From a virus (Duplodnaviria; Caudoviricetes), in the IMG/VR virus record IMGVR_UViG_3300024331_000007, positions 128,001 through 192,000 of that record: a stretch of 64,000 bases of DNA. One strand, 5' to 3'. Below are positions 2,540-35,524 of this stretch, piece by piece; position 1 is the first letter of the stretch, and every line of letters starts with the position of its first letter. Position numbers and translations under genes: made by a program. The notes below the pieces were generated by a model. The model was not told the origin of the DNA, made no database searches, and saw only the letters and a program-made list of their open reading frames with translations.

Positions 2540-3928
2540 TTACCCTTTCGCTATAGACCCCAACAATGACTTCAACAAGTCTTTCTTATTCTCTGTCGTT
2601 CCTCCGATTGACACTGTATCTGAGGACGATGCTTCTTTTTTGTTTCGAATCTTTGCCAGCATATTGCTTCCAGTCATTGTTGCCTCATCAACTGGTGCCT
2701 GTGTTGAATTTGTTATTCGAAGAGAATTTACATCGAAGTCCAAATCAACTTTGCTTCCAACCCCGCTACTGTTACGAGTCTTCATAAATTGCAATTGAAT
2801 TGCGCCACGTTCCTTCATACTGCGGCTAGTGAAAATTCCAAACACATTATCAGCAGTGAACAGTTTTGAAATACCACCAGCAATTGATCCTGATGAAAAC
2901 TCCAACTCGTCAAAACCACTGCGATTCAATTGGGATGCTGTAGCCAGTAGTGCTCTTTGTTCGATTGCAAAATTTCTCAACTCTTCACAAACCAGCTTGT
3001 CCTTTGTGAATACGTCAGCAACATCAATTTTTGCCCCACTTGGCATAATCAAATCCAAGTAATCAAGGCAAACAAAGTCTGCTTTGAAATCTTCCTGAAT
3101 CGCCAGTTCTTTAATGTACGCCTTGATCTGATTTACTGTACTCTGTGACGGCAGATACTTAATTTTTAGTCGGCCATACTTCTTTTCAGCCATCTTAATC
3201 CTGAGTTCAACATCGTCAATATTCTTGTAAATATCCTTGCTGCAAACACCTGTTACCATGCTGTCCAATCGCATTGCAACAAGGTCTTGACTCAATTCGA
3301 ATGTGATGTAAATTCCATTGAGTCCTGACTCGATCCAATTCAGAGCCAGATTTTGCAGGAACAAACTCTTTCCAGTTCCAGACGCTCCAACAAAAATATT
3401 CAGTTCGCCGCGATTTGATCCACCGTACAACTTCTCGTCAATGTCTTTCCAACCAGTGCTAATCTGACCATTGCTGTTTTTTAAACGCATCAAACGACCT
3501 CGCGGATCACTGAAATATTCAATACCTAAATCTCGCGTAAGGCTTACTTGAACTGCGTCTTTAATTAGCTTTTCAACTGTGTCAAATTCGCCCTTCACTA
3601 ACAGATCGGCGCTTTCTACAATTGCTCTTTCCAATTCTTCGCGCTTAGTAAATTGCTCAAAGTTATCCAGAAACCATTCTTCATGCCCTTCTCGAATATC
3701 GCTAATCAATTCAAGATTCGTATTCGCAACAGCATTCACTTGTTGAACAGTTGGAATAGTGTTGTGAGTCTGAACATGTTCCTGAATAAATTTTGCTGCT
3801 TTGTATAGGCTTCTATCGAAATTCTGCGGATTGTAGATGTTCTGAATGCGTGTGTATAGATTTCCGCTACTGAGTAAAAAATTAAGAAAGACTTCTTGTA
3901 CTTCTGGTCTTGTTTTTTCTGATGACAT
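2540..3928 (-). CDS. dnaB: replicative DNA helicase, T4 gp41/DnaB-like
   Basis: Walker A GASGTGKS, Walker B LDYLDLI, TASQLNR, MKTRNS; 462 aa; adjacent to primase. Confidence 0.93.
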   Translation of the reverse strand: MSSEKTRPEVQEVFLNFLLSSGNLYTRIQNIYNPQNFDRSLYKAAKFIQEHVQTHNTIPTVQQVNAVANTNLELISDIREGHEEWFLDNFEQFTKREELERAIVESADLLVKGEFDTVEKLIKDAVQVSLTRDLGIEYFSDPRGRLMRLKNSNGQISTGWKDIDEKLYGGSNRGELNIFVGASGTGKSLFLQNLALNWIESGLNGIYITFELSQDLVAMRLDSMVTGVCSKDIYKNIDDVELRIKMAEKKYGRLKIKYLPSQSTVNQIKAYIKELAIQEDFKADFVCLDYLDLIMPSGAKIDVADVFTKDKLVCEELRNFAIEQRALLATASQLNRSGFDELEFSSGSIAGGISKLFTADNVFGIFTSRSMKERGAIQLQFMKTRNSSGVGSKVDLDFDVNSLRITNSTQAPVDEATMTGSNMLAKIRNKKEASSSDTVSIGGTTENKKDLLKSLLGSIAKG

Positions 3929-4256: not shown

Positions 4257-4988
4257 TCAATAATTTCTGTTTGGTCTTAAACAGCACGGTATTGTTTTCA
4301 TTCCTTTATTCCACGGAACCCTTCCACGCATTTTATTTTTAGTTTCTTCGGAATGGCGTTTTCCAAGATGAGAATTGGACATCTTTTTCTTTGATTCTTT
4401 GGATGCTTTGTTACCTAAATTATTTTGACTACCTATCAACGAAGAAGAGATTTTCTTTTTAGTTTCGACGGAAACTAAATGACCAGTTAGAGTGTTTCTA
4501 ATTTTCTGTTTGGTTGTATTTGACGGTGGTGTTCGTAGCAAAGTGGCTGTTCTAATTTTATTTTTAGTCGCTACTGCTTTGTCTTTTCCATATATTTCTT
4601 CATAGGAACGTCCCTTGTTCCTGCCACACTGGACGGCTGACATTTTCTTTTTAGTTTCTTCAGAATGAAACTTATTTTTGAATTTTGCTTTACCAAACCG
4701 ATGACTTTTATTGAGTAGCAAAGGATTGCACCAAGATTCAAAAATTTTGAACTGTTCAAAATTGTATGCATCATCTCCGGTATTAAACTCAGCCAATATT
4801 ATCCAATCATATTCATCAAAGTTGTTGCGAACAATATTACACGATGTTCGATACATTGGAAGATCAATGTCAGACGGCACATTTAGTTTTACATTCTTTT
4901 CTCTATAACCGATGTAAAATTGTTTTGTAATTTTGTGGATACACAGATATACATATGGACGAACTTGCGATGATTTATAAATATTCAT
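4257..4988 (-). CDS. free-standing GIY-YIG homing endonuclease with NUMOD3 repeats
   Basis: YVY...FYIGYR motif; repeated HSEETKKKMS-type NUMOD3 units; RVPWNKG. Confidence 0.85.
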   Translation of the reverse strand: MNIYKSSQVRPYVYLCIHKITKQFYIGYREKNVKLNVPSDIDLPMYRTSCNIVRNNFDEYDWIILAEFNTGDDAYNFEQFKIFESWCNPLLLNKSHRFGKAKFKNKFHSEETKKKMSAVQCGRNKGRSYEEIYGKDKAVATKNKIRTATLLRTPPSNTTKQKIRNTLTGHLVSVETKKKISSSLIGSQNNLGNKASKESKKKMSNSHLGKRHSEETKNKMRGRVPWNKGMKTIPCCLRPNRNY

Positions 4989-5053
4989 GCTGTTGCTCCA
5001 ATAAGCGATAGGGTAGTTGGGGAGGCCAATCCCGCGAACTACATCTATTTATA
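4989..5053 (-). ncRNA. late promoter plus conserved structured leader of GIY-YIG gene (copy 1)
   Basis: TATAAATA-G-AT-GTAGTT-CGC-GGGA/TCCC-C-AACTAC-CCTATCG-(GCT...GGAGC)-AACAGC-ATG; same architecture at 17432, 49882, 53622. Confidence 0.8.
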
Positions 5054-6070
5054 AGGGTTCCTAAATTGTTGCTGTACCCTTATCAGAGCCGCGTTATCGG
5101 TTGCATTTTTTAGCAAATGAGTAACACAAAATAACGAACCATATTTTACATATGCCGCATTTATGTCTTTGACATCCCATTGTGGTATACTCACACTCCA
5201 CCCATTATCAATAGCGGTATCAATTACACTATTATTTCGTATCACTTTTCCATTTTTATCTATTTTGGGTTTATTTAGCCCAGCCTTGTCAAGATCGGGA
5301 ACAACAATGATTTTCTTTTGAAGATCGCAAATCATTTCCGTTTGCTCGTCGCTAATTTCGTTGTGCATGACGGATAAACATTTCACACTTAGCGCATCCA
5401 GTAATCCTTCAGTGACAAATACCCATTCATGCTCTGGTTGAACATATTCCATACCAAACACAAATTCACAGGTCTTTCTCATGATATATCGCATCCTCTC
5501 GGCTGGATTGATCGAGCGAGCAGAATAGCCGATGATTGTATCGTGAAGAATGAATGGCAGAATTACGCGGGAACGATATACAAGATCAGGAGAAACAAGA
5601 AATGGAAAATCGGCGGGTGTAAAACCGCGAGTCTTCAAAAAGTTAACATGTGCTGGATACTTTGAAATATCATTTTCCAACAGCGTGCAATCTTTGGGCA
5701 TTTCAATTGCTTTAATGTCACGGCGTACAATTGCCCTCGGTTCAAACCCAGCTTCTTTTGCTGCGCGTAGACTTTCCAACTTGAGTTGACTAATCGTACT
5801 TTCGTCTACATTTAACCATTTAAGAAGATTGATAAACTTTGGATACAGTGGCTTGCCCGGTGTATATGAAGCTGTAGCGCCACAATTAAAACAATGAAAA
5901 CTACATGATCCTGCTGCGTTATCGAATTTCATTCCGCCACGCCCGCGTTTGTCTGGACTTTGACCGCGATGTTCACAGCACGGAGCATTACGAGACAGCC
6001 AGCCGCTTGGAGAGGTTTTAACTCTGCCGCGATGCCAATAATCGTATGCTGTTTGGGCGATAATGTTCAT
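5045..6070 (-). CDS. dnaG: DNA primase, T4 gp61/DnaG-like
   Basis: N-terminal Zn finger (CCEH...HCFNCG), TOPRIM VTEGLLDALS and PDLDKAG; start trimmed to MNIIAQ. Confidence 0.9.
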   Translation of the reverse strand: MNIIAQTAYDYWHRGRVKTSPSGWLSRNAPCCEHRGQSPDKRGRGGMKFDNAAGSCSFHCFNCGATASYTPGKPLYPKFINLLKWLNVDESTISQLKLESLRAAKEAGFEPRAIVRRDIKAIEMPKDCTLLENDISKYPAHVNFLKTRGFTPADFPFLVSPDLVYRSRVILPFILHDTIIGYSARSINPAERMRYIMRKTCEFVFGMEYVQPEHEWVFVTEGLLDALSVKCLSVMHNEISDEQTEMICDLQKKIIVVPDLDKAGLNKPKIDKNGKVIRNNSVIDTAIDNGWSVSIPQWDVKDINAAYVKYGSLFCVTHLLKNATDNAALIRVQQQFRNPYK

Positions 6071-6145
6071 TCTTGTGAGTATAGCACAAAAAACAGGTCG
6101 CGTCCACAACGAACAGCGACCCACCCAAACTGAAAAAGTCAATTA

Positions 6146-6979
6146 CTAAATACGGATGTTGCCCCCGCTAATGTAAGTCGCGACATTGGATGGGCTTAGG
6201 TTTCCAGAACGAGAAGGATCAATGGAATCCAGAACGAAACGAATTTGGGCAAAGCTGCCCGAAACAGATTGAAACACCAAACCAGCGGCATTTGCATAAA
6301 AAGTTGACGATACATTCGCCCAATCGGTGGGCAATGGAATTGAAACCATTGTTCCCTGAGCGACGATGTTTCCAGTATAGAGAACCAAATTTGCGCAAAG
6401 AGTTGCCAGAGTGCTGTTCATTGGTCTGTTTGTTAGATCGATTGGATTGCTAGTAACGCCCACATCAACAACATCCAAAAATGTTACTGGTGTTGGATCG
6501 GGATATGCAAGAACTGGACCTTTTGCCAGCGTTGTTGTTAAACGAGAACCAAAGTTGTCATTGATGTAAATTGGATAAATGTTAAGATTTGCGTCAGTTC
6601 CAGTCAGCGCAATTTCATACATACCAAAATCCAACGGTGCTAGTTCGCTGGGCGTAAACACGATTTCAACTACTCCATTCGTCGAGTCAATAGATGTGGC
6701 GTTTGCAGTAATCAGTTCATTCTGGGTGTTTGGCTCGAACAAGCCGCACTGAATTGCAACATTACTGTTGGCAAGATTGATGCGCTTCTGGTCTGAATTT
6801 AGACACTGAATCTTGATCGGATTGTTGACACCTGAATAGAGAACTAGCGGAGTACTATACACGGTTCGGACCTCATTATAGCCTACGACTCCAATACCAC
6901 TTGTTGCATCGGAGATGCCGACAATGTAGGCTAATATCTTGGTTTGACGGCCTTCAAAATAGGCTTTTACGGTCTGCAT
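6146..6979 (-). CDS. late, probably virion-associated beta-rich protein
   Basis: 277 aa, beta-strand-like composition, GCTAAATA late-promoter-like site directly upstream. Confidence 0.55.
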   Translation of the reverse strand: MQTVKAYFEGRQTKILAYIVGISDATSGIGVVGYNEVRTVYSTPLVLYSGVNNPIKIQCLNSDQKRINLANSNVAIQCGLFEPNTQNELITANATSIDSTNGVVEIVFTPSELAPLDFGMYEIALTGTDANLNIYPIYINDNFGSRLTTTLAKGPVLAYPDPTPVTFLDVVDVGVTSNPIDLTNRPMNSTLATLCANLVLYTGNIVAQGTMVSIPLPTDWANVSSTFYANAAGLVFQSVSGSFAQIRFVLDSIDPSRSGNLSPSNVATYISGGNIRI

Positions 6980-6984
6980 ACCTA

Positions 6985-7003
6985 TATTTAGCTTTTATAA
7001 ATA
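6985..7003. promoter_or_regulatory. back-to-back T4-type late promoters
   Basis: GCTAAATA on minus (6985-6992) and TATAAATA on plus (6996-7003) between divergent genes. Confidence 0.7.
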
Positions 7004-7036
7004 CTTTCGGCAATCAAAACATTCTAAAGGGAAAAC

Positions 7037-7417
7037 ATGACAAGCAAGCTCTATCAAACACTTTCGGAAAAATTTCCATTCATTTCAGTCATACTTTACG
7101 GGGATTCTCAGGACGAGTATGTTGGTATCATCCAAAACGCGGACAATATCATTACCAGCATCTACGATTTCGGTCTTTTGAAGTCCGACGAAGAAAAACA
7201 CCTGTTCCTCGAATTGGGCGAAAAATGGTACTACGAGTCCAATCGTCAATTGCCCATCAACATCTATTTGAAGGATGAATGGCAGTCTTTTGACAAGGTT
7301 TTCAAGACTTTTATCACAAAGGAACTTCAAGTAATTCACGGACCATCCACAAGCCTATCGGCGCTCTCTCAGAAGAAAAAACGCCGGTCGATTATGGTTG
7401 TGAAGAAGTTGAGCTAA
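7037..7417 (+). CDS. conserved phage hypothetical protein (late)
   Basis: 126 aa plus-strand ORF behind TATAAATA, with GGGAAA RBS-like site. Confidence 0.75.
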   Translation: MTSKLYQTLSEKFPFISVILYGDSQDEYVGIIQNADNIITSIYDFGLLKSDEEKHLFLELGEKWYYESNRQLPINIYLKDEWQSFDKVFKTFITKELQVIHGPSTSLSALSQKKKRRSIMVVKKLS

Positions 7418-8991
7418 TTTTCGTACATTGACGAGCTACGAGTTTCATGTCGAGTTTTTCGGCCTAGATGATTGTTTTTTTGAATGTAAACCAACTTGTT
7501 CAGAAGATCGGGATGCGTTCTCATCAAAATTTTCTTCTGTTTTCGCAATCTGGAATCCATTCTCAGAGGCTTATCATATGCAAACTGCCACGTTGAAAAA
7601 TTCCTGATTGGATAGTAACCATCATCCACAATTGTACCAACGAAGTTCATCTTTTCAGAAAATTTCTTGTTCGGTTGAGAAAGGCGGATAATATTCATTG
7701 TCTCAATCGCCTGATTAAATGCCGGGGCTTCGTTTTGTAAAATGTTTCTTGTGAATCGATGCTTGTCATTATGTGCTGATCCGCTAACCACATTGGTTCG
7801 CTCGGCCATCTTTTCCATTTTGTTTAGATTCGTTTTGTTTGCTGGAAGGATGACAACAGAATACGAATCAACTCGTTCATTATTTTTACCAGTTCTCGCG
7901 CTAAGCTGTCTGTTATACTGTTCGGCTGTTATTCTTCCAGCAGCCAATTCAAATACTTCAGGCAAAGCGTATACTTTTACGAAATGTCCCCTTTTATCAT
8001 AGTGGGCCACGCGCAGAAATGCCTGAGCCATGCTATTGTAGCACGAAGTTTCTGAACGATAATCATGCCAAAAATAAAGCAGGTTGTGAAACCCAACCTC
8101 AGTTGAACGACTACATGTTCTATCAATTACAAGCAACGTCAATACGCCAACCTTTGCATCTGGCGCGTCATCTTCCCACTCGTATGCTGTGGTTTTGTCG
8201 ATAAATTTGCATCGTATTCCAAGATTGTGTAATTCTTGAATCACAGCATGGTTGTTTTTGAGTTTAATACGATCTTGACTTCCGCCAATGTCTCGTAGAA
8301 CTGAAATAATTTTTCCAGTTTTCTTTCCGTTTCGAACCCAATCTTTGCAAATGTCAAGACCATGCGGAGTTAATCCATCATTGTCATAAAACTGTTCAGG
8401 CGCAGTTACAAGTTTTTTGTCTAGGAACCATTCTGCTCCGCGATATGATGATGGCGGTAAGAATGGTCGAGGAGCGGGGAAATTTTTGGAGAACTCTCTA
8501 CAATAAATTAGTTCTTCATTTGTGGCTGAATAATATCTGAATCGAACCAATTCGCCTAGTTTTTCTGTCTTCCGATAAAATGTTCCCAGACATTGTTTCT
8601 TGGCAGTTCCGTAATCGCTTTCGTCAATATGCACGTAGCAAAGAATGCCAGATGAAACTTTAGCCTTAATTTTTGCAACCTGAATCGAAATTTTGTCCAT
8701 CGAAGACACGATCAATGGTGTGATTCCATAGCTTTCCATTTCTTCAATTTGCTTCTTAGTATCTTTGCGCTGGAGAGCAGTTACATAAAAATGATGACAT
8801 TTGGCAAAATTTCTAGGTCTTGCCTTCGTAAACAACGATGCAATTTCAACCATGATTCTTTTGCCCGATTTGACTGGAGCTAGGATAGCCTCGTGTCTAT
8901 TGGCCGTCGCTATATATTTTGTCGTGTGGTCGTACAATTCAAAACGATTTGTTTTAAAATACAAAAGATCATGAAGATTTTGAGAACTCAT
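7414..8991 (-). CDS. divergent SF2 helicase-like ATPase
   Basis: APVKSGK (Walker A-like), HIDESD (DExD-like), YSAT (motif III), QAFLRVAHYD (motif VI-like). Confidence 0.55.
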   Translation of the reverse strand: MSSQNLHDLLYFKTNRFELYDHTTKYIATANRHEAILAPVKSGKRIMVEIASLFTKARPRNFAKCHHFYVTALQRKDTKKQIEEMESYGITPLIVSSMDKISIQVAKIKAKVSSGILCYVHIDESDYGTAKKQCLGTFYRKTEKLGELVRFRYYSATNEELIYCREFSKNFPAPRPFLPPSSYRGAEWFLDKKLVTAPEQFYDNDGLTPHGLDICKDWVRNGKKTGKIISVLRDIGGSQDRIKLKNNHAVIQELHNLGIRCKFIDKTTAYEWEDDAPDAKVGVLTLLVIDRTCSRSTEVGFHNLLYFWHDYRSETSCYNSMAQAFLRVAHYDKRGHFVKVYALPEVFELAAGRITAEQYNRQLSARTGKNNERVDSYSVVILPANKTNLNKMEKMAERTNVVSGSAHNDKHRFTRNILQNEAPAFNQAIETMNIIRLSQPNKKFSEKMNFVGTIVDDGYYPIRNFSTWQFAYDKPLRMDSRLRKQKKILMRTHPDLLNKLVYIQKNNHLGRKTRHETRSSSMYEN

Positions 8992-9043
8992 CGAATATCT
9001 TTCCTTTCATGTATGGCAATTTTAAGTATACACCCAATCACAA

Positions 9044-9583
9044 CTATTGTATATCAAAATTTTGGTTTAGGCCATCAATCTCTTGATCAATTTGATTTAT
9101 CTCTTCAATGGCCTTTTTCACGGCTCCGCTTAAATCTGTATCCACAAAGTCACGAATGATCGTCATGATTTCATCTACGGCATCGGGAGGATTCCAAACT
9201 TTCAAAACAACATTGTCATCTTCGCCATTACCATCTGGAACATCCAAACGCGGAAGGTTCGGCAACACCGCTAGAATTTGCCAAATCTTGTCTTCCACTT
9301 CTTTGAGAGCCTGTTTTTGAATTGGAACCTCGACCTTAATTATAGCCGCCTCATTCAAAAATGGTTCAATTGGTTGCTTGGCTCTCTTTGCCATCGCAAT
9401 GTCTTCGCTGATGACATTCAGGCGAGCAAGATTGATTTCCAGAGCAGCAATCAAAATCTTTCGATGCGCATTCAAATCCAACACTTCGTCAATCTTGTCT
9501 TCAGGCTTCGTTTTGTCATGGCGCAATGCAAGTCTGCGCTTGTACTCTTCGGGATTCGCTTCGATTTCTTTTATATCATGCAT
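9044..9583 (-). CDS. stand-alone seryl-tRNA synthetase N-terminal (tRNA-binding coiled-coil) domain protein
   Basis: MHDIKEIEANPEEYKRRLALR...LAVLPNLPRLDVPDGNGEDDNVVLKVW follows the SerRS N-terminal pattern; no class II catalytic domain follows. Confidence 0.8.
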   Translation of the reverse strand: MHDIKEIEANPEEYKRRLALRHDKTKPEDKIDEVLDLNAHRKILIAALEINLARLNVISEDIAMAKRAKQPIEPFLNEAAIIKVEVPIQKQALKEVEDKIWQILAVLPNLPRLDVPDGNGEDDNVVLKVWNPPDAVDEIMTIIRDFVDTDLSGAVKKAIEEINQIDQEIDGLNQNFDIQ

Positions 9584-10079
9584 ATTGCACCAACTTTACT
9601 AGCATTTTTACAGAATCAGTTGGACATTCAATGTGATCCAGTGCATGAATGTCACCTTGTACCGCTGCCATTTGCACTTCTTCACATGGCCTCTTGATGT
9701 ATTTGATAATTGTTGGTTGTTCTGTCACTGCCGCTATTTGCGCTTCAACACAAGCATATGGCATGTACGCAATTGCATACGGAGCACAACTGACAGCAAA
9801 AAGTTGCATTTCTTTTCCAACGGGTGTCATATATTCCAGAACTGACAAATCGCGATCAATCGCATATCGCTGAACATCTTTGTGTGGACTTTTGATGAAT
9901 CGAATGTTTCGCTGATTCTTTTTTACCGCCGCCATTTGAACGGGCAACTTTGGATTTCGAATCAGCTTCAAACGAAACGGTTGTTCGAGCACAGCCGCAA
10001 TCTGTTCCTCGACTGTTTCCATGCGAGGAACTTTTTCATACGTTTCTGTGCTGAACAATTTTCTTGCCATTACGACCAC
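9576..10079 (-). CDS. helical repeat protein (DUF4116-like QxAAVxxxxxxIxYIxxP repeats)
   Basis: About six ~22-aa repeats such as VQMAAVKKNQRNIRFIKSP. Confidence 0.65.
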   Translation of the reverse strand: MVVMARKLFSTETYEKVPRMETVEEQIAAVLEQPFRLKLIRNPKLPVQMAAVKKNQRNIRFIKSPHKDVQRYAIDRDLSVLEYMTPVGKEMQLFAVSCAPYAIAYMPYACVEAQIAAVTEQPTIIKYIKRPCEEVQMAAVQGDIHALDHIECPTDSVKMLVKLVQYA

Positions 10080-10527
10080 TCCATTAAAAATAAAACATAT
10101 GCTGCTTTACTTTTAAACTTGATAAACGTGTATCCCTCGCCGATAACGTCAGATCGAATCAGAGTTGCATTATATCTGTCTTTGTATCTCTGATTAATCT
10201 CTTTCCAAGACAATCTCGCCGAATCCCCGTTGACAACAGCTACCCATGCTTTAGTATGAGCGGCATATATGTCTTCGATTTTAACAGTTACACTCACAAC
10301 CACTCCAACAGAAAAAGCATGTATTCCGATTCTGATTTGAAAACAACCTCTCGGTATCCACTTTTATCAGCTATCAATGTTACGTTGTATCTCTGATTAA
10401 AAAAATTTTCAATGCCTTCGCTGATAATATCTGGACATGATGTTTGAAAATCTAAAACGGCAACATCCCATGCTTTGCCTAATGGCTTGTGTACTCCCCA
10501 ATCTGCTTTTACCGTGTAACTCATCAT
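10070..10527 (-). other. two tandem paralogous small ORFs (10070-10303, 10294-10527)
   Basis: Both 77 aa, share KAW...F..RYN.TLI...FKS...Y.LFL.EW. Confidence 0.65.
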
Positions 10528-10534
10528 TGCCTAT

Positions 10535-10816
10535 CTATTCCGCTAGCTTAGCTAGCATTGCAATTTCGTCAGTTGGATTCTTGATATAGTGAATGGCTTT
10601 TCCATCTTGATTCACCGCTGAAGATTGTGCCTCTGGAGATGGAGTCTCAATGTATTGAATATAGAGAGGGTGTCCATCCAATGCCGCCAACTCTTCATCG
10701 ACTGACGGGCGTTTAATGTATCGAATTGTTGATGGTTCTTCGGCAATCGCAGCAAGGCGGCTTCGCTTTGTCATGCACATCAACGTCAAACGAATTACAT
10801 TCGGCATTATTTCCAT
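10535..10816 (-). CDS. helical repeat protein, paralog of 9576-10079
   Basis: RLAAIAEEPSTIRYIKRPS, ELAALDGHPLYIQYIETPS repeats; ends AMLAKLAE. Confidence 0.6.
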   Translation of the reverse strand: MEIMPNVIRLTLMCMTKRSRLAAIAEEPSTIRYIKRPSVDEELAALDGHPLYIQYIETPSPEAQSSAVNQDGKAIHYIKNPTDEIAMLAKLAE

Positions 10817-10824
10817 AGGAACTC

Positions 10825-11446
10825 CTAAACTGTTAGTAGGTGCATCATGATTTCATCTTGTTCTGCTTTTTCAATGTCTTCAACCTGCATCCAAAATGGG
10901 GTATAACCATCATGAACAGCGACCCAAACACCGCCATACTGATTTTCAATTTCATCGGGCGATTTGCCTTTATACTGTTCCAAACTTATGAAAGTGTCAT
11001 AGTTTGGATGTTTGCCAATACTTAAAATTTTCACGATGTATTTCTGCCCACCCCGAAACATTCTGACGTATTCGCCAACCTCGAAAGTCTCTTCCATTTG
11101 ACACTCGCTATCAGTTTCCATTTTCGTGAAGTTTTCCAATAACTCCATGATTTGACGCAATCTGCAATTTCAATTCTTTTGGGTCAAACTTTTTTCCATC
11201 TGTGATAGCAATAAGAATTGAATTTGTTTTGCGAAGATTTGTGACTAAAACATTTTGAAGATCGCGAGTCAAGGTAGCCTTTTCCCGATAAATTCTTTCA
11301 GTTTGGGCCATTAGTTCCGCTTTGATTTCCGCAAATCTCTCAGGAGATGCGGAGCGAATTTCTTCAAATGTATCTCTTATATCCATATCTTTTCCTTTCA
11401 AATGCTTCAAAACTTTGGGATGGCGATTTTCTAGCCATCCCAACAC
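10825..11446 (-). other. two hypothetical ORFs (10825-11160 SH3-like; 11111-11446 coiled-coil)
   Basis: ORF track; packed minus-strand run. Confidence 0.5.
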
Positions 11447-11453
11447 TTGCCAA

Positions 11454-12563
11454 TTATTCTCCGTATGCCAGCGGATTGCCCATCAGGGACATCTTCGCAA
11501 CATCGGACCACTCTTCATAATCCTCGTTGAAGGTCTTCACCAGTCCAGCCAGCTTGATAACTGTGCGGAGTGAAAGTTCGTTGAAGCCCTTGGCATTCTC
11601 GCGAAGGAACTCCATGATTTCCTTGCCAGCCTTCTTTGAAAGGTTGAACTGATCCAACATTCCATGATTCTTCACAAGGTCTTCGATGCGAAGCATCTTC
11701 TCACGGAAAGTATGCACAGTCAAATCAAGAAAATGCGCACGAGACATGAGAGCGGAGAGGTGACCACGAAGACGCTCACCGCGAACCTTGCGGAAGTTGA
11801 TGTTTGAAATGAAGATCACGCTTCCTTTAAACTCATAACTGTTAGGAATGTCTTCCTTCGTTAAGGTATGAGAAGCAACATTCCAATAAATCATACGTTT
11901 CGCTGAAGTGTCCAGCGCCGCCTTCAGGATGTTCAACGCGGTTTCGTCTGTAAAAACCATGTCGCAATCGTCCAGAACCAGAACGTCATTGTCGTTGCTA
12001 AACTCATGCAGCTTCATGTACAGACCAATCGGAGTCATGGCACCCGACACAATCTCGTAACGTTTAGGTGTATCTTCAAACTGATCAATCATGCCAGCTT
12101 CACCAAGAGTCTTTTCGACGCCGAAAGTCTTTCCAACTCCCGGTGCTCCAGTGACGAACAGAGCGCGAATATCTCCGCGACGTGCGCCGAGTGTGAGCTT
12201 GTTCAGAACTGAAAAACGCTTGTTTACGCGAACTACAATCTGCTCGTCGGTTTCGGTGGTTTCAACATCAGGAATCGAATCATCTTCCAGAAGAGAAACA
12301 GCGGCAGTTGTGGAAGATGCAGCGGCATTGCGACGAGCAATGGGAGACTTCTTAACGGGATTGAACTCGCCGTTAATCGTAAAATCCTTCTCAGAGCGAA
12401 CCTTGATGCGAGCCTTTGGACGGCCATACAACTTCATGCCGTCAACAGTTACGAAACCTTCGCCAGTCTTTGCGCCGACTTTGTAGCCTTCAAGAATGGT
12501 AAAGGTCTGATTCTTGATGTTCTGTCCGCGAGACTTGCCACGATTAATGGTTACTGTCGCCAT
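11454..12563 (-). CDS. P-loop (AAA-type) ATPase
   Basis: GAPGVGKT Walker A, VLVLDDCD Walker B, FISN sensor; own sigma70 promoter upstream. Confidence 0.8.
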   Translation of the reverse strand: MATVTINRGKSRGQNIKNQTFTILEGYKVGAKTGEGFVTVDGMKLYGRPKARIKVRSEKDFTINGEFNPVKKSPIARRNAAASSTTAAVSLLEDDSIPDVETTETDEQIVVRVNKRFSVLNKLTLGARRGDIRALFVTGAPGVGKTFGVEKTLGEAGMIDQFEDTPKRYEIVSGAMTPIGLYMKLHEFSNDNDVLVLDDCDMVFTDETALNILKAALDTSAKRMIYWNVASHTLTKEDIPNSYEFKGSVIFISNINFRKVRGERLRGHLSALMSRAHFLDLTVHTFREKMLRIEDLVKNHGMLDQFNLSKKAGKEIMEFLRENAKGFNELSLRTVIKLAGLVKTFNEDYEEWSDVAKMSLMGNPLAYGE

Positions 12564-13721: not shown

Positions 13722-14813
13722 TTAAAGGTCCAACATGTGATCTAATGCCACATGCGCCCAATACTTCACCACGTCGCGAACCTTGATTTGATTTACAACA
13801 TTTCCAGAGACAAGATTCTCAAGTGCCCATGCCAAATGTTGTGGAGTGATTCGATACATTGTTGTGCAGAGGCAACCTTGCTCAGTCAGATTGAAAATCG
13901 TCTTTCCAAGTGGAGCGTACTTTTTCGCAAGACGATTCACAAGATGAATTTCGGTTCCGATTGCAAACTCTGTTCCAACAGGAGCAGCATCAACAATCTT
14001 GATGAGGCTTTCTGTCGAACCAACGGCATCTGCTTTCTGGCAAACTTCCCATTTGCATTCTGGATGAACAATCACTTTGATGTTTGGATGAGCAGCACGA
14101 ACATCATCAACGTGACTCGCAAGGAATCTCTGGTGAACGGCACAATGTCCTTTCCACAAAAGAATTTTACTGTGGTCATAATCAGCTTTACTCAAACTAC
14201 CCTGTAGCGCCCACGGATCATACACAGACATTTCATTCAAGGGAATGCCCATATTGTATCCAGTATTACGTCCAAGATGCTGATCTGGCAGAAATAAAAT
14301 TCGCTTTGCTTGCTTGAATGCCCACTCGAAAGCACGTTGCGCATTCGAAGAAGTACAAACCAACCCTCCGTGCTCACCCACAAATGCTTTGATAGCAGCC
14401 GTCGAGTTCATATATGTAATCGGAAGTGTTTCATCTGCCAGATGAAGCTTTTCCAATGTTTCCCAACACGCTTCAACTTGAGAAATTTCTGCCATATCAG
14501 CCATCGAACATCCAGCGTTTAAATCTGGAAGAATAACAATTTGGTCATGGCCCAAAATATCTGCGCTCTCAGCCATAAAATGAACGCCACAATAAACAAT
14601 GTACTTCGCATTTGTTTTCGCGCCATCTTTGGCGAGTTTAAAACTGTCACCTGTGAAGTCCGCAAACTTGATTACTTCGTCGCGCTGATAATGATGCCCC
14701 AAAATGACAACAGAATTACCCAGCGTCTTTCGAGCCGCAGCGATTCTATCGTCCATTGTATTATCGGGGTATTGCAGGTAATTTTCCAGTGTGCAAACTT
14801 GACCAGTTGCCAT
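13722..14813 (-). CDS. nadA: quinolinate synthase A
   Basis: ILGHHYQRDEV, CGVHFMAESA, AGCSMADMA, YMNSTAAIK, CTSSNA, LPDQHLG, WKGHCAVH, VHPEC, GTEIHLV, CLCTTM; 4Fe-4S cysteines present. Confidence 0.97.
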   Translation of the reverse strand: MATGQVCTLENYLQYPDNTMDDRIAAARKTLGNSVVILGHHYQRDEVIKFADFTGDSFKLAKDGAKTNAKYIVYCGVHFMAESADILGHDQIVILPDLNAGCSMADMAEISQVEACWETLEKLHLADETLPITYMNSTAAIKAFVGEHGGLVCTSSNAQRAFEWAFKQAKRILFLPDQHLGRNTGYNMGIPLNEMSVYDPWALQGSLSKADYDHSKILLWKGHCAVHQRFLASHVDDVRAAHPNIKVIVHPECKWEVCQKADAVGSTESLIKIVDAAPVGTEFAIGTEIHLVNRLAKKYAPLGKTIFNLTEQGCLCTTMYRITPQHLAWALENLVSGNVVNQIKVRDVVKYWAHVALDHMLDL

Positions 14814-16216: not shown

Positions 16217-16759
16217 TTATCGAACTCTGTACGTGGCTGTACTTGAGGGGGTTTCTTTGAACGTAATTGCACTAAGCCACGCGGTTCCGTTTGTCTTTTC
16301 TAAAACTATCGGAGAAAGAATCTCAAAAAAATGCTTTGCAAGATATTCTGAAGTCGGTGCTCCTCTGATAATGTATGTCTTACCAAAGTTCGACTGTCCT
16401 GCCCAAAAACTTTTGTGATTAACTGAATCAACAACATCATTATACCAATCAGTAAAGATATGATATGGTTGGCGTGTTAATTTCTCATCATATGCCATGT
16501 TGATAAACTTTGTATCGTGCAATGAAAGTATAATTCCATGATCACACAAAGCATCAACATGATCCATTAAGATTTGTTTAAGAAATCCATAATCCAAAAT
16601 CATGTCAGTTTGAGGACCATCTTCGATTAAATCACCTGTTAACTCCGCGATGATCGTTCCGCGATGTCCGTGCAGGTTTTTACATTTTGATTCGTGCTTT
16701 GGTACTCGATGTGCGTAATCAAAATCTATTTCTTTGGATATTGACTTCTCTTCAATCAT
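16217..16759 (-). CDS. queD: 6-carboxy-5,6,7,8-tetrahydropterin synthase (QueD/PTPS family)
   Basis: FDYAHRV, CKNLHGH, ILDYGFLK, CDHG, PTSEYLA, ETPSS. Confidence 0.9.
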   Translation of the reverse strand: MIEEKSISKEIDFDYAHRVPKHESKCKNLHGHRGTIIAELTGDLIEDGPQTDMILDYGFLKQILMDHVDALCDHGIILSLHDTKFINMAYDEKLTRQPYHIFTDWYNDVVDSVNHKSFWAGQSNFGKTYIIRGAPTSEYLAKHFFEILSPIVLEKTNGTAWLSAITFKETPSSTATYRVR

Positions 16760-16811: not shown

Positions 16812-17390
16812 TTATTTTTTGGCTGATCGGTTACGAGTGTGTGACCTAATGGTAATCAACATTTCGTTATGAAGATCAGCGAGAGCGCCAGCATCATTTT
16901 CAGCATCGTGCGGTCTGCCACGAAATTTCAATCCAACGGATTCCAATGCTTCTGATAGCGGCAACTTGTATTTCTGGTTGTATGCACTTCGCCACAAAAT
17001 ACCAAAATCCAAAATGCCATTAATTGACCACGGATTAGGACAGGAATATTTTGCGCAATGTTCGGAGATTGGTTCGTAATCGCTTCCCCACGCATATGTA
17101 ATTTTGGTTTGCGGAGCGAACTCTTTCTTAATTGTTCGCATAACTTCTGGAAAGTAGTGGCCCTCATCAATTATTTTTGAACGAGTGATTCCTGTCAGTT
17201 TTGTGCAATAGTCGCTGACCTCAAAATGCTTACTTTGGGGTCTGACGAAATAACTTTTTCGGCGTATGATCTTGAGCGTTTCGGATTCAACTTCTACGAT
17301 GCCCAATTGTATAATGTGGTTTGTTTGACCATGTGGACAGTCTCCGTTCTCCCAACAAAGCATCTCTGCATCCAAAAACTGTATTTTCAT
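16812..17390 (-). CDS. DEDDh 3'-5' exonuclease (ERI1/KapD-like)
   Basis: FLDAE, IIQLG, CTKLTGIT, AWGSD, GRPHDAENDA; start trimmed to MKIQFL. Confidence 0.85.
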   Translation of the reverse strand: MKIQFLDAEMLCWENGDCPHGQTNHIIQLGIVEVESETLKIIRRKSYFVRPQSKHFEVSDYCTKLTGITRSKIIDEGHYFPEVMRTIKKEFAPQTKITYAWGSDYEPISEHCAKYSCPNPWSINGILDFGILWRSAYNQKYKLPLSEALESVGLKFRGRPHDAENDAGALADLHNEMLITIRSHTRNRSAKK

Positions 17391-17431
17391 AATTATTCTT
17401 TCTGCCAGTGGCGTATTACTTGAAGTATAAC

Positions 17432-17499
17432 ATAAATACAAATGCGATTCGCGGTGTTGAAGCACCCAATCGCCCTAACGCTATTATGGAGCGCCAGCT
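17432..17499 (+). ncRNA. late promoter plus conserved structured leader of GIY-YIG gene (copy 2)
   Basis: ATAAATA...GCGATT-CGC-GGTG/CACC-C-AATCGC-CCTAACG-(CGCT...GGAGCG)-CCAGCT-ATG. Confidence 0.8.
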
Positions 17500-24184: not shown

Positions 24185-24214
24185 AGAATAGCATTATGAA
24201 GTACCAAATGTCAA
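24185..24214 (-). promoter_or_regulatory. sigma70-type early promoter
   Basis: TTGACA-N18-TATTCT. Confidence 0.6.
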
Positions 24215-24530
24215 GAGTTTTTTCCGATTGTTACTGAAATAGTCTTAGTTCTTTGTTTTGAGGCATCTACAGAGTCTCTTTTTTCCAGCCGATAGTTAAG
24301 TTCAAACATTAGCTTGTTTTTGTACAATTCCAGAGCAAAATCCATCGCCCAACCCACTAAAGCGGCACTCCAATAGATGATTATACAGACCAAAGTGAAT
24401 CGAAACCATCCATCGTGGGGAGTTTTCGTGAACTCGGCGGTCTGAATCAGCCAGCCCGTCATTAAAAGCATGTACCAATGTTCTTTTAGAAAACGCCAAA
24501 CTTTTGACATTTGTGTTCCTTCCTGTTGCC

Positions 24531-25083: not shown

Positions 25084-26205
25084 TTACTCGCCATCCACAC
25101 GGAATACAGAATCGCCCGAAGGTTCAACCATTTTCCAAATCATTGTATCAATCTTTTTGCCGTCCAACAAACCAAACAAAAGACCTGAATACTTACGATT
25201 TTGTTCCATCGTGAAGTACTCCGCCATCTTCTTACGTGATTCCTTGTAAGGTGTAAATGGGTCAAGTTGAGGGCGATTCACGTAGATCACGTTCACTGCG
25301 TTGTAAATCGCTTCATACTTTTCCGTCAAGGACAAAACAACACCCTTAACCCACGTCTTAAACGTATCAGGCATACGCGCATCTGAAAGCCAACCGTTTA
25401 CGGTTTCCATCTGTCCGTCACGCAACAATTCCCACACAGAACGAACGTTCAAACCCGTCAGAATCTTGTGAAGACGAACATACTCATCAAACTTGACCTT
25501 AACTTTCAGGCCAGTTGAAGGATACGTCAAAACATAACCTTCACGATTCTTGTCATTCTCGGCAAGTGACTCGGAAAGCGTCTTACGATATTCCTTGACG
25601 ACTTCCAAACCCATCGCACGACAATAATCCTTCACATTTGAACGCGAAGCCTCCACACCAGTTTCGATATTCACCGCTCCCAAAATTACCAGACCTTCAA
25701 AATCATAGTCCACGACAATTTTGTTCTCGGAATAAATTACTTCCGAAACAAGCGTATAATCCTTCAGCAACGTCAACGAAGGATATCGCGAACGCAACCA
25801 ATTCGTAGCCCATTCCGCTTGTTCTGAATGGAAAGCACCGCGAGTTGCAACGTGATTTAAACCATCCCACGCGAACATCGTACCCATTGAACCATCCAAC
25901 TTCTCAAGGAAAATTGCCTGTTCCTTCGGCAAGTTTTTCTCTAACGTTTCGGGGTGACGATCATCATTCAGATTCCAAAACTTTGCAAATGGACGCGCAA
26001 CAACCTCATTGTTGTCCATGCAATACACAAGACCGCGAGACAAATTCATCTCGTTACCCCAAATCAGCTTAGGGTCGTACTGTGCTTGCGGCGTATAATT
26101 CAACACTGCCAGAGGATACTGACGGTGAATTTTACGCGAGATGTAGCCTTCGTGAATCAAACGATTCAAGTTCTCCACATCCATGATTTGTGACAACTGA
26201 ATCAT
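25084..26205 (-). CDS. rnlA: RNA ligase, T4 Rnl1-like
   Basis: ARPFAKFWN, adenylation motif EKLDGS, TRG, EGYV, KVKVKFDEY. Confidence 0.88.
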   Translation of the reverse strand: MIQLSQIMDVENLNRLIHEGYISRKIHRQYPLAVLNYTPQAQYDPKLIWGNEMNLSRGLVYCMDNNEVVARPFAKFWNLNDDRHPETLEKNLPKEQAIFLEKLDGSMGTMFAWDGLNHVATRGAFHSEQAEWATNWLRSRYPSLTLLKDYTLVSEVIYSENKIVVDYDFEGLVILGAVNIETGVEASRSNVKDYCRAMGLEVVKEYRKTLSESLAENDKNREGYVLTYPSTGLKVKVKFDEYVRLHKILTGLNVRSVWELLRDGQMETVNGWLSDARMPDTFKTWVKGVVLSLTEKYEAIYNAVNVIYVNRPQLDPFTPYKESRKKMAEYFTMEQNRKYSGLLFGLLDGKKIDTMIWKMVEPSGDSVFRVDGE

Positions 26206-34557: not shown

Positions 34558-34917
34558 TTATGCGATGCTGAAATACATCAGAATCACATATAAAACTTTA
34601 CATCCATAGTGAAGTGCCTGATCGGTAGTAAAGCCAAATCTGCCGTCACACTTCAAAAAGTCAATGAACATATGTAAAACAAGTTCAAGCATTGCCAAAA
34701 ATAAACTGCCTGTTACAAGCCCGACCATACCTGCATGAATCAGAGCATGACTTAACAGCATGATCTGCCACGAATAGCCGGGAATCGGATTCTTGTGATT
34801 CTTCCCTTTTGAGAGAAACTCGCCCTGTAAAGGAAAATCGCAAATTTCATGTCCGACAATCAACCAAAATAGAATTGGCATTAGTTCCTCACGGGGTATT
34901 TCCAAATTCCCCATCAA
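34558..34917 (-). CDS. DUF3307-like membrane protein
   Basis: GHEICDFPLQ, HALIH, HMFIDFLK, DQALH. Confidence 0.75.
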   Translation of the reverse strand: MMGNLEIPREELMPILFWLIVGHEICDFPLQGEFLSKGKNHKNPIPGYSWQIMLLSHALIHAGMVGLVTGSLFLAMLELVLHMFIDFLKCDGRFGFTTDQALHYGCKVLYVILMYFSIA

Positions 34918-35431
34918 GCCAGTTGATAGCCGGGATTACTACTGCAAAGCCAAAAATGACGTTGATTATAATCCCCAGAACGCCTGTAAAATCATACCAC
35001 CATTGATTGTTCCACACATATTGCATGTGATCATACCACAGGTTGACGTAAATCAGTACAATTGTTGAAACGAGAAGAAAAATCCATGTGCTCAGTTTCA
35101 TCAGTGTATAATGCTCCCCGACATTGTTGAAACGGTATTCATAAAACCCTTTCTTTATTCGCTTACAATTTCGCTCGGTGCCTCGCTAGTCGGTTCGCTT
35201 ACCTCAGATGGTTTCTGAATCAAATGTAGTAACCAATTCACTACTAAAATCGAGGTTGTCACAAAGCTAATAAAAGCAAAAACATAGCACCAAATCAAGG
35301 TCAGTCTAAACCACCAAGCCGTTGAAATTGGTTCGGAAAAAGTATACATCCAGCACAACAAATATGAAAATCCTATCGAACTGGCAGGCAATAATGTCAA
35401 CAAATACTTTTTCATGGTAACCTCTCAAAGT

Positions 35432-35524
35432 TGGTAGGGGATGAGTGATTCGAACACTCCCGTTGCACCAATCTAGTGCTCTCCAGTGTTTATAAGGCAC
35501 CGCCGCACACCAATGCTATCCCCC
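35432..35524 (-). tRNA. atypical 93-nt tRNA with UAU anticodon (nominally Ile) and long variable arm
   Basis: GGGGGAT/ATCCCCT-A-CCA; D-arm GCAT-TGGT-GTGC; anticodon loop CT-TAT-AA; variable hairpin GCACT-AGATT-GGTGC; T-arm GAGTG-TTCGAAT-CACTC. Confidence 0.8.

Follow-up and report, generated by a model that had tools for sequence, protein, structure and literature searches.

A gene of a ~360-kb phage codes for the tRNA-binding domain of bacterial-type seryl-tRNA synthetase (SerRS) and for no other part of that enzyme: cap, coiled-coil arm and linker are followed by a helical tail. The gene lies on the minus strand at 9044..9583 of a 64,000-nucleotide stretch of viral DNA (the window, bases 128001-192000 of the 359,890-bp IMG/VR virus record IMGVR_UViG_3300024331_000007; CheckV completeness ~90%), and its open reading frame (ORF) of 179 codons plus stop is intact. 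Having no class II catalytic core, the product, P0001, cannot activate serine or charge tRNA. We put at about 0.5 the probability that the phage produces P0001 and that this protein, built from the arm and an acidic helix, has a non-catalytic role in which it recognizes tRNAs by their shape. P0001 thus appears to be a viral tRNA-binding protein of a type not described before, and its gene is one of a small group of arm-only genes, likewise undescribed until now, that large phage-like elements carry.

An earlier note on this DNA, made from the letters alone, had proposed that the first ~135 residues follow the SerRS N-terminal arm through its conserved linker, and that a ~45-residue helical tail then replaces the catalytic core. 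Both points held up. The Pfam profile Seryl_tRNA_N (PF02403), a check that the note had called for, matched P0001 with an E value of 4e-17 and 62.9 bits (gathering cut-off 28.2) over the whole model (residues 1-111 against profile positions 1-108 of 108), and a search of the genome with the same profile scored the ORF at 62.6 bits. A profile of SerRS sequences of at least 270 aa aligned residues 1-135 (111 bits) and stopped there, with 130 more profile positions remaining, while solved SerRS chains aligned with residues 2-134/137 at up to 34% identity. P0001 also matched the first 134 positions of a 426-position PHROG, which we read, from the length of the profile, as a full-length phage SerRS. 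The NCBIfam serS equivalog (TIGR00414) gave 37.9 bits, below its curated cut-off of 301.65. As the SerRS alignments end at ~135, the homology comprises cap, coiled-coil arm and linker and ends where the catalytic core should start. At the other end, no more than 4 open codons precede the ATG; hence, the N-terminus of P0001 coincides with that of SerRS. Eight columns show no variation, or at least 90% conservation, across 44 SerRS N-regions, and P0001 keeps them all. By mean identity to this set it resembles real SerRS as closely as these resemble one another, ranking 22nd of 44 in the cap, 9th in the arm and 25th in the linker, although these ranks are flattered, the set being the best hits of P0001. 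With that rank the linker is no more degraded than in real SerRS.

Four parts can be delimited on the minus strand. The N-terminal cap helices (residues 1-27, 9503..9583) were placed by comparison with SerRS N-regions and by an AlphaFold2 (AF2) model, and the antiparallel coiled-coil arm (residues 28-106, 9266..9502) by AF2 together with VIA and Foldseek structure searches. The linker, PNLP..DVP.G..EDDN...W (residues 107-134, 9182..9265), is defined by SerRS alignments and profile and is predicted to be coil. A lineage-specific acidic heptad helix (residues 135-179, 9047..9181), assigned from AF2 and charge, stands in place of the catalytic core. A single-sequence AF2 run was poor, and the final model used a 45-row alignment. 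It reached a predicted local distance difference test (pLDDT) score of 91 (~98 in the arm helices, 73-86 in the linker coil and 73-94 in the tail), with cap helices, arm helices at 28-67 and 73-106, coil at 107-132 and a helix at 133-176. Foldseek returned SerRS chains at all of ranks 1-35, and the top match of an exhaustive VIA search was Pyrococcus horikoshii SerRS (2dq0; Z 13.6, root mean square deviation 1.2 Å over 111 residues). Generic, unrelated helical hairpins reached Z of ~8-10 against the same model. P0001 is thus predicted to have a long antiparallel two-helix arm with SerRS geometry, a fold match that is not independent of the sequence match, as the AF2 input alignment held SerRS sequences only. 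A homodimer prediction for two copies of P0001 with alignment A1 scored 0.00, which counts neither way.

The tail has a net charge of -8 (residues 135-179), and its hydrophobic residues, read from the sequence, follow a 3-4 heptad spacing over ~6 heptads. It had no homologue among 1.84 billion representatives, where no hit extended beyond residue 148, no match in the SerRS profile and no paralogue in the phage genome, and a wide VIA search gave no compact-bundle match that takes in the tail. A likeness seen by eye to the first helix of the SerRS core (D-F-x-x-A-A-K) was rejected, as the SerRS profile lends it no support. The tail would probably stabilize the lone hairpin or dock a partner.

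A catalytic SerRS half elsewhere in the genome, which the earlier note had named as the finding that would overturn its reading, was not detected in the ~90% complete record. The class II core profile PF00587 matched neither P0001 itself nor anything else in the 359,890 bp (0 hits at E ≤1), whereas 14 of 14 control genomes were positive. An unfiltered six-frame hmmsearch of the whole record with a hidden Markov model (HMM) of full-length SerRS (E ≤50) returned the arm ORF and otherwise noise, with nothing near the gene, and no tRNA-synt_1 or tRNA-synt_2 core was found in the phage record. Neither neighbour supplies the core, as the note had also claimed: the upstream gene encodes a repeat protein and the downstream gene a protein resembling superfamily 2 (SF2) helicases. 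Only 52 nt separate the P0001 gene from the next one, too little to house a serS remnant. With no intact or decayed class II core in the record, a split, two-gene SerRS in the phage is very unlikely. Motif 1, which forms the SerRS dimer interface, is also absent from P0001, and this speaks against a looser arrangement, in which P0001 would be half of a two-piece synthetase whose class II core lies in the unsequenced ~10% of the genome or is an arm-less SerRS-like core of the host. The SerRS arm does act across subunits, with functions split in SLIMP/SerRS2alpha (PMC10817482), the conserved linker could dock onto a core, and CheckV completeness leaves some room for one. Nonetheless, no core appeared in the record at either threshold or in the flanks fetched around the related genes described below, and we regard such an arrangement as very improbable.

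The gene itself is real, intact and of phage-typical composition. Its ATG overlaps the stop of the upstream gene at ATGCATGA (9576..9583 on the minus strand, read from the sequence), which suggests that the two are translationally coupled. No terminator-like site was found in the packed minus-strand genes from ~11446 down to 9044; the sole minus-strand match, at 8099-8081, falls within the downstream helicase-like gene. Among 376 phage genes, the P0001 gene stands at the 24th percentile for codon adaptation index and the 59th for GC content; therefore, it has not been acquired recently. Identical pieces (9024-9185 and 9358-9650) are present in contigs from a second soil metagenome run and confirm the tail, stop and start regions of the gene. 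The sequencing runs that hold this stretch were two soil DNA runs and no RNA run, and their copies are identical, with no polymorphism. By our own estimate at ~41% GC, a 45-codon frame such as that of the tail has a ~6% chance of staying open at random.

SerRS arms without a core also occur outside this phage. Library hits were screened for protein-like tails and a profile search followed, yielding six arm-only proteins of 192-227 aa (P0110, P0150, P0152, P0155, P0156 and P0157) on phage-like or unclassified contigs. They start with M-L-D-R, share a common arm, form a clade with 99% support in the SH-like approximate likelihood ratio test (SH-aLRT) and carry a non-SerRS helical tail of 80-115 aa with the motif A-L-x-R-I-x-x-L-D-A-E. 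Four short top library hits (P0002, P0003, P0004 and P0153) were considered as stand-alone arms and rejected as frameshifted or contig-cut cellular serS, and most other odd tails among the short hits look like out-of-frame junk. PF00587 was not found in the flanks of the arm-only genes (~6-10 kb where the contig allows; the contigs of P0150 and P0156 are shorter than 2 kb). The contigs show dense arrays of small same-strand ORFs, and two of them (L101 and L098) have PHROG hits to homing endonucleases and RNA ligase. Large ORFs in the vicinity of P0155 and P0157, on contigs of 405-435 kb, had no match to PHROG profiles, so that the viral nature of these two contigs is read from gene layout alone. 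A search of viral and metagenome contigs with the family alignment A3 gave no matches. The P0110 gene lies within an array of 16 tRNA genes, followed by genes for an RNA ligase, a CCA-adding enzyme and PTH2, a context that favors a role in tRNA maintenance. For pairs with computable dS, the ratio of nonsynonymous to synonymous substitution rates (dN/dS) in the arm was 0.16-0.40; in the tail, the closest pairs gave 0.15-0.28 and pairs further apart 0.54-0.69. Although these values are rough, with synonymous sites near saturation, they indicate that the family has probably been kept by purifying selection as stand-alone proteins. Separately, a 785-bp contig with 67% GC carries a complete gene (L100:169-747) for P0046, a protein of 192 aa with a SerRS arm, the linker and a 53-residue beta-looking tail, which may represent a third type of arm-only gene.

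P0001 shares the architecture of this family: a SerRS arm, no core, a non-SerRS helical tail and a viral-type genomic context. Its arm is 29%-39% identical to those of the six proteins, the linker is kept in P0110 as in P0001, and the tail motif starts 30 residues past the linker tryptophan in both (E-R-M in P0110, E-E-I in P0001). In a test for the C-terminal motif A-L-x-R-I-x-x-L-D-x-E with the HMM of the family tail, P0001 scored a weak 5.9 bits, a value reached by 23 of 5,000 shuffles (P ~0.005), by 3 of 2,426 natural 45-residue windows from the proteins of this phage (P ~0.001) and by none of 459 C-terminal windows. An hhalign comparison of P0001 with the family aligned the arm only and not the tail. 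We take the likeness between the tails as a hint only. A quick maximum likelihood tree placed P0001 outside the 99% clade, and its well-supported branches are compatible with a single origin; P0001 and the arm-only proteins could form one old family, or this domain could have been captured twice independently.

Several points weigh against a working tRNA reader. P0001 is a singleton whose best relatives among the 1.84 billion representatives are only 35%-39% identical; it sits on a long branch (terminal length 1.23, median 0.49) outside the arm-only clade; and an arm-only gene was found in none of 27 related or huge-phage viral records. Three unrelated huge phages carry full-length serS. The genes beside that of P0001 show no tRNA link. 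The net charge of the arm is inside the range of 44 real SerRS arms but toward its acidic end, most of them being slightly less acidic, and the isoelectric point of P0001 as a whole is 4.6. The linker is fully conserved though it has no obvious role without a core, which fits a recent truncation too. Moreover, an isolated arm may bind tRNA only weakly, since in full SerRS the core of the second subunit takes part in binding as well.

Part of this picture would suit a dead remnant. An ancestral phage serS could have lost everything beyond codon ~135 in the rearrangement that introduced the SF2-helicase gene, the tail being read-through and the ORF surviving by chance or on its way out. A singleton missing from the nearest relatives of the phage and seated in a hyperplastic insert (described below) is what such an event might leave, as are its long terminal branch and a linker still intact, as expected soon after truncation; huge phages do carry full-length serS that could be cut. 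However, the 3' part of serS is untraceable in any frame of the whole phage record, and the nearest full-length SerRS are so distant (35%-39% identity) that no recent donor is visible. Fully phage-like codon usage and a native SerRS start with coupled translation do not suggest decay either, nor does a tail that has stayed open for 45 codons as a regular heptad helix (AF2 pLDDT 73-94). The sister family, moreover, shows truncated arms kept by selection. We therefore consider a dead remnant unlikely.

The proposal that P0001 reads tRNA shape rests on what the arm does in the enzyme. The SerRS arm grips the long variable arm and the elbow of tRNA-Ser and tRNA-Sec, and the anticodon is not read. 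We infer that P0001 binds long-armed tRNAs because it is homologous to the SerRS arm and because of where the P0110 gene lies, and this reading gains indirect support from a sister arm-only family that appears to be under purifying selection and has one member in a tRNA array beside tRNA-repair genes. A free arm would bind tRNAs with long variable arms, that is, host and phage tRNA-Ser and possibly other long-armed tRNAs of the phage. It could hold or shield the bound tRNAs, deliver them to another factor, or keep them from host SerRS by competition. In established SerRS biology, the arm recognizes the variable arm and acts from one subunit to the other (SLIMP/SerRS2alpha), and it is through the arm that SerRS can present tRNA-Ser to METTL6 (PMC10817482).

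Alternatively, the arm may have been repurposed as a coiled coil that has nothing to do with tRNA and binds host SerRS, another host factor, a phage partner (e.g., one of the neighbouring gene products, the repeat or the helicase-like protein) or a different nucleic acid. Helical hairpins are all-purpose modules for interaction, and many unrelated ones reach the VIA scores of 8-10 given above; P0001 is also very acidic overall, with a tail that carries eight net negative charges. Its gene is, in addition, coupled to that of the repeat protein and adjoins the helicase-like gene, which is likewise specific to this phage. A generic coiled coil would not be expected, however, to keep all of the most-conserved SerRS arm residues together with the linker, and the best-placed sister gene sits among tRNA and tRNA-repair genes. 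Such a change of use is, in our judgment, improbable.

The phage is itself tRNA-centred, which speaks for a tRNA-shape reader and offers it possible ligands. ARAGORN predicted 52 tRNAs in the record, including Ser(GGA), Ser(UGA), Tyr and five Leu; of the Leu tRNAs, only the two Leu(UAG) are clearly long-armed. Short additional hairpins occur in the variable region of tRNAs with Gly, Glu, Trp and Lys anticodons, both in this phage (genome positions 24214-24296, 34654-34737, 35218-35302 and 35313-35402, outside the window, with GAAA, UUCG or UAAA loops) and in the unrelated arm-carrying contig L098 (3350-3435, 3539-3628 and 4899-4981). Three suppressor-type tRNAs (genome 24352-24428, 24878-24953 and 25202-25279, likewise outside the window) have two CUA anticodons and one UUA. 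The phage also has three genes of the RNA-ligase family PF09414 (window 25513-25914 on the minus strand; genome 193680-194132 and 110119-110562), and despite these no CCA-adding enzyme of the PolyA_pol type was found in it.

The earlier note had further suggested that the free arm partners the phage's own long-variable-arm UAU tRNA at 35432-35524 (minus strand), a suggestion that the results do not support. The candidate was found by ARAGORN only at a lowered threshold and had no Rfam tRNA hit. A clean 92-nt tRNA(UAU) occurs on L098 (3255-3346), with G1-U72, A73-CCA and the AGATT variable-arm loop as in the window copy. A pattern built from these two copies and run on viral contigs gave at least 120 matches, and 108 of the 120 among the matches listed (L106-L225) were tRNA(UAU) of 88-96 nt. 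Their class II-type variable arm, invariant C-AGATT-AG loop and covarying stems, often with G1-U72 and A73-CCA, mark the long-arm tRNA(UAU) as an apparently widespread phage tRNA family, and the combination of A73 and a long arm appears Leu- or Tyr-like. The window copy is atypical for this family and was not detected by an nhmmer profile of it. A dedicated partnership between P0001 and this tRNA would draw on the presence of such ~92-93-nt genes, with the same three features, in both the arm-carrying phage and the arm-carrying L098. The tRNA family is common, however, and PF02403 was found in none of 50 viral records carrying tRNA(UAU), including 10 that are at least 90% complete, while the window copy escapes default ARAGORN, Rfam and the family profile alike. 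There is also no tRNA within 10 kb of P0155 or P0157. Given how widespread the tRNA is and that none of its 50 records has PF02403, an obligate pairing is not supported, and we hold a dedicated partnership to be extremely improbable.

P0001 can be set beside several known systems. Its 135 N-terminal residues are homologous to, and co-linear from Met1 with, bacterial-type SerRS (TIGR00414; e.g., 6r1n, 2dq3, 2dq0 and 1sry), with which it shares the cap, the ~60-Å coiled-coil arm and the PNLP..VP.G..E.DN...W linker, but it lacks the class II core (motifs 1-3) and has a novel acidic helical tail instead. In SLIMP/SerRS2-alpha of insect mitochondria, as in P0001, the arm and the active catalytic site are on different polypeptides; SLIMP is non-catalytic, retains the arm and still binds tRNA-Ser (PMC10817482). 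Unlike P0001, which has no core and ends 45 residues past the linker, SLIMP keeps a full-length inactive core and dimerizes through it. Aminoacyl-tRNA synthetase (aaRS) domains are known as free-standing proteins, such as AlaX, YbaK/ProX, Trbp111, HisZ and the amino acid:carrier protein (aa:CP) ligases, which are SerRS-like cores without the arm (PMC9437257). The last are the mirror image of P0001, and an aaRS domain as an independent gene is the theme common to both; none of these proteins is a SerRS arm, and the known examples are cellular and not viral. The SerRS paralogues covered in one review are SerRS2, SLIMP and the aa:CP ligases, with no arm-only form (PMC9437257), and a second review has none either (PMC10817482). 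The sole literature match to the name Seryl_tRNA_N was an uninterpreted entry in an accessory-cluster table of a retron survey. Hence, free-standing aaRS domains are already known, and what is new here is the SerRS arm as such a domain in viruses.

The synthetases described in the huge-phage survey of Al-Shayeb et al. 2020 (PMC7162821) are whole enzymes. Like P0001, the full-length SerRS of the three huge phages noted above (L088, L089 and L094; phrog_16140) are phage-encoded, SerRS-derived and from tRNA-rich giant phages, but each is a whole enzyme, core included, of 423-461 aa. P0001 shares 28%-29% identity with two of them and matched the third over a 32-residue stretch only, and it is no closer to huge-phage SerRS than to bacterial SerRS. 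A tblastn search of GenBank phages with P0001 gave 10 records, each matching only the first ~74%-77% of the query at 29%-35% identity; we read these as SerRS genes, probably host-derived.

The gene is part of a phage-specific insert of ~4.5 kb (6980..11453) between backbone genes, delimited by tblastn synteny with three relatives (L006, L007 and L009). Relatives were found via a gp41-like helicase (2540-3928, 71%-85% identity), and the backbone that they have in common comprises this helicase, the genes at 5045-6142 and 6146-6979 and an AAA ATPase gene (11454-12563), the last two of which bound the insert. Relatives have ~1-1.3 kb at this place, and the extra DNA consists of the arm gene, the downstream 525-aa gene and several small genes. 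PF02403 was not found in the backbone relatives, and viral-contig scans for close relatives with P0001 and with its 525-aa neighbour found none. The upstream gene of the same operon (9576..10079, minus strand) encodes a 167-aa repeat protein (phrog_17056 and phrog_5925) with homologues in L006 and L009; it is paralogous to the product of 10535-10816 (minus strand), with a repeat of ~22-33 residues. The downstream gene (7414..8991, minus strand) is, like the arm gene, absent from close relatives. Its 525-aa product, with no Pfam and no PHROG hit, is a divergent SF2 (ResIII/DEAD-like) helicase-like protein by its Atlas feature and structure neighbours, which are large virus-only clusters, some with a weak ResIII/DEAD signal; it carries Walker A/B-like motifs.

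Other features of the region include a homing-endonuclease-like gene with a NUMOD3 motif (4257-4988, minus strand) between the helicase and the gene at 5045-6142; as these two are adjacent in L007 and L009, it looks like a mobile insertion. The match to the gp41-like helicase is broken after residue 337 by ~1.5 kb in L009 (10001-12909) and L008 (319-3227), which suggests an intein, intron or endonuclease insertion. Auxiliary genes, all on the minus strand, encode quinolinate synthase NadA (13722-14813; E 1e-98), a QueD-like 6-pyruvoyl-tetrahydropterin synthase (16217-16759) and an RNase T-type exonuclease (16812-17465).

More broadly, but only tentatively and with more doubt than confidence, arm-only SerRS proteins might form a new class of viral tRNA-shape readers that mark or hold the long-armed tRNAs of giant phages. 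Host SerRS ignores the anticodon, and marking long-armed tRNAs (Gly, Glu, Trp, Lys and UAU) could prevent this enzyme from charging them wrongly with serine. A free arm could also shield such tRNAs against tRNA-cleaving nucleases of the host, or pass them on to the repair and processing enzymes of the phage, in the way that METTL6 receives tRNA-Ser from SerRS. The SerRS arm is the textbook case of a module that recognizes the shape of a tRNA and not its anticodon. AlaX, YbaK, Trbp111, the aa:CP ligases and similar free-standing aaRS domains have in each case brought a new activity to light. If P0001 does bind long-armed tRNAs, it would be a compact natural binder of class II tRNAs, useful in tRNA biology and orthogonal translation. 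It would show giant phages managing odd tRNA sets without a synthetase or, alternatively, a phage manipulating the serine decoding of its host without one.

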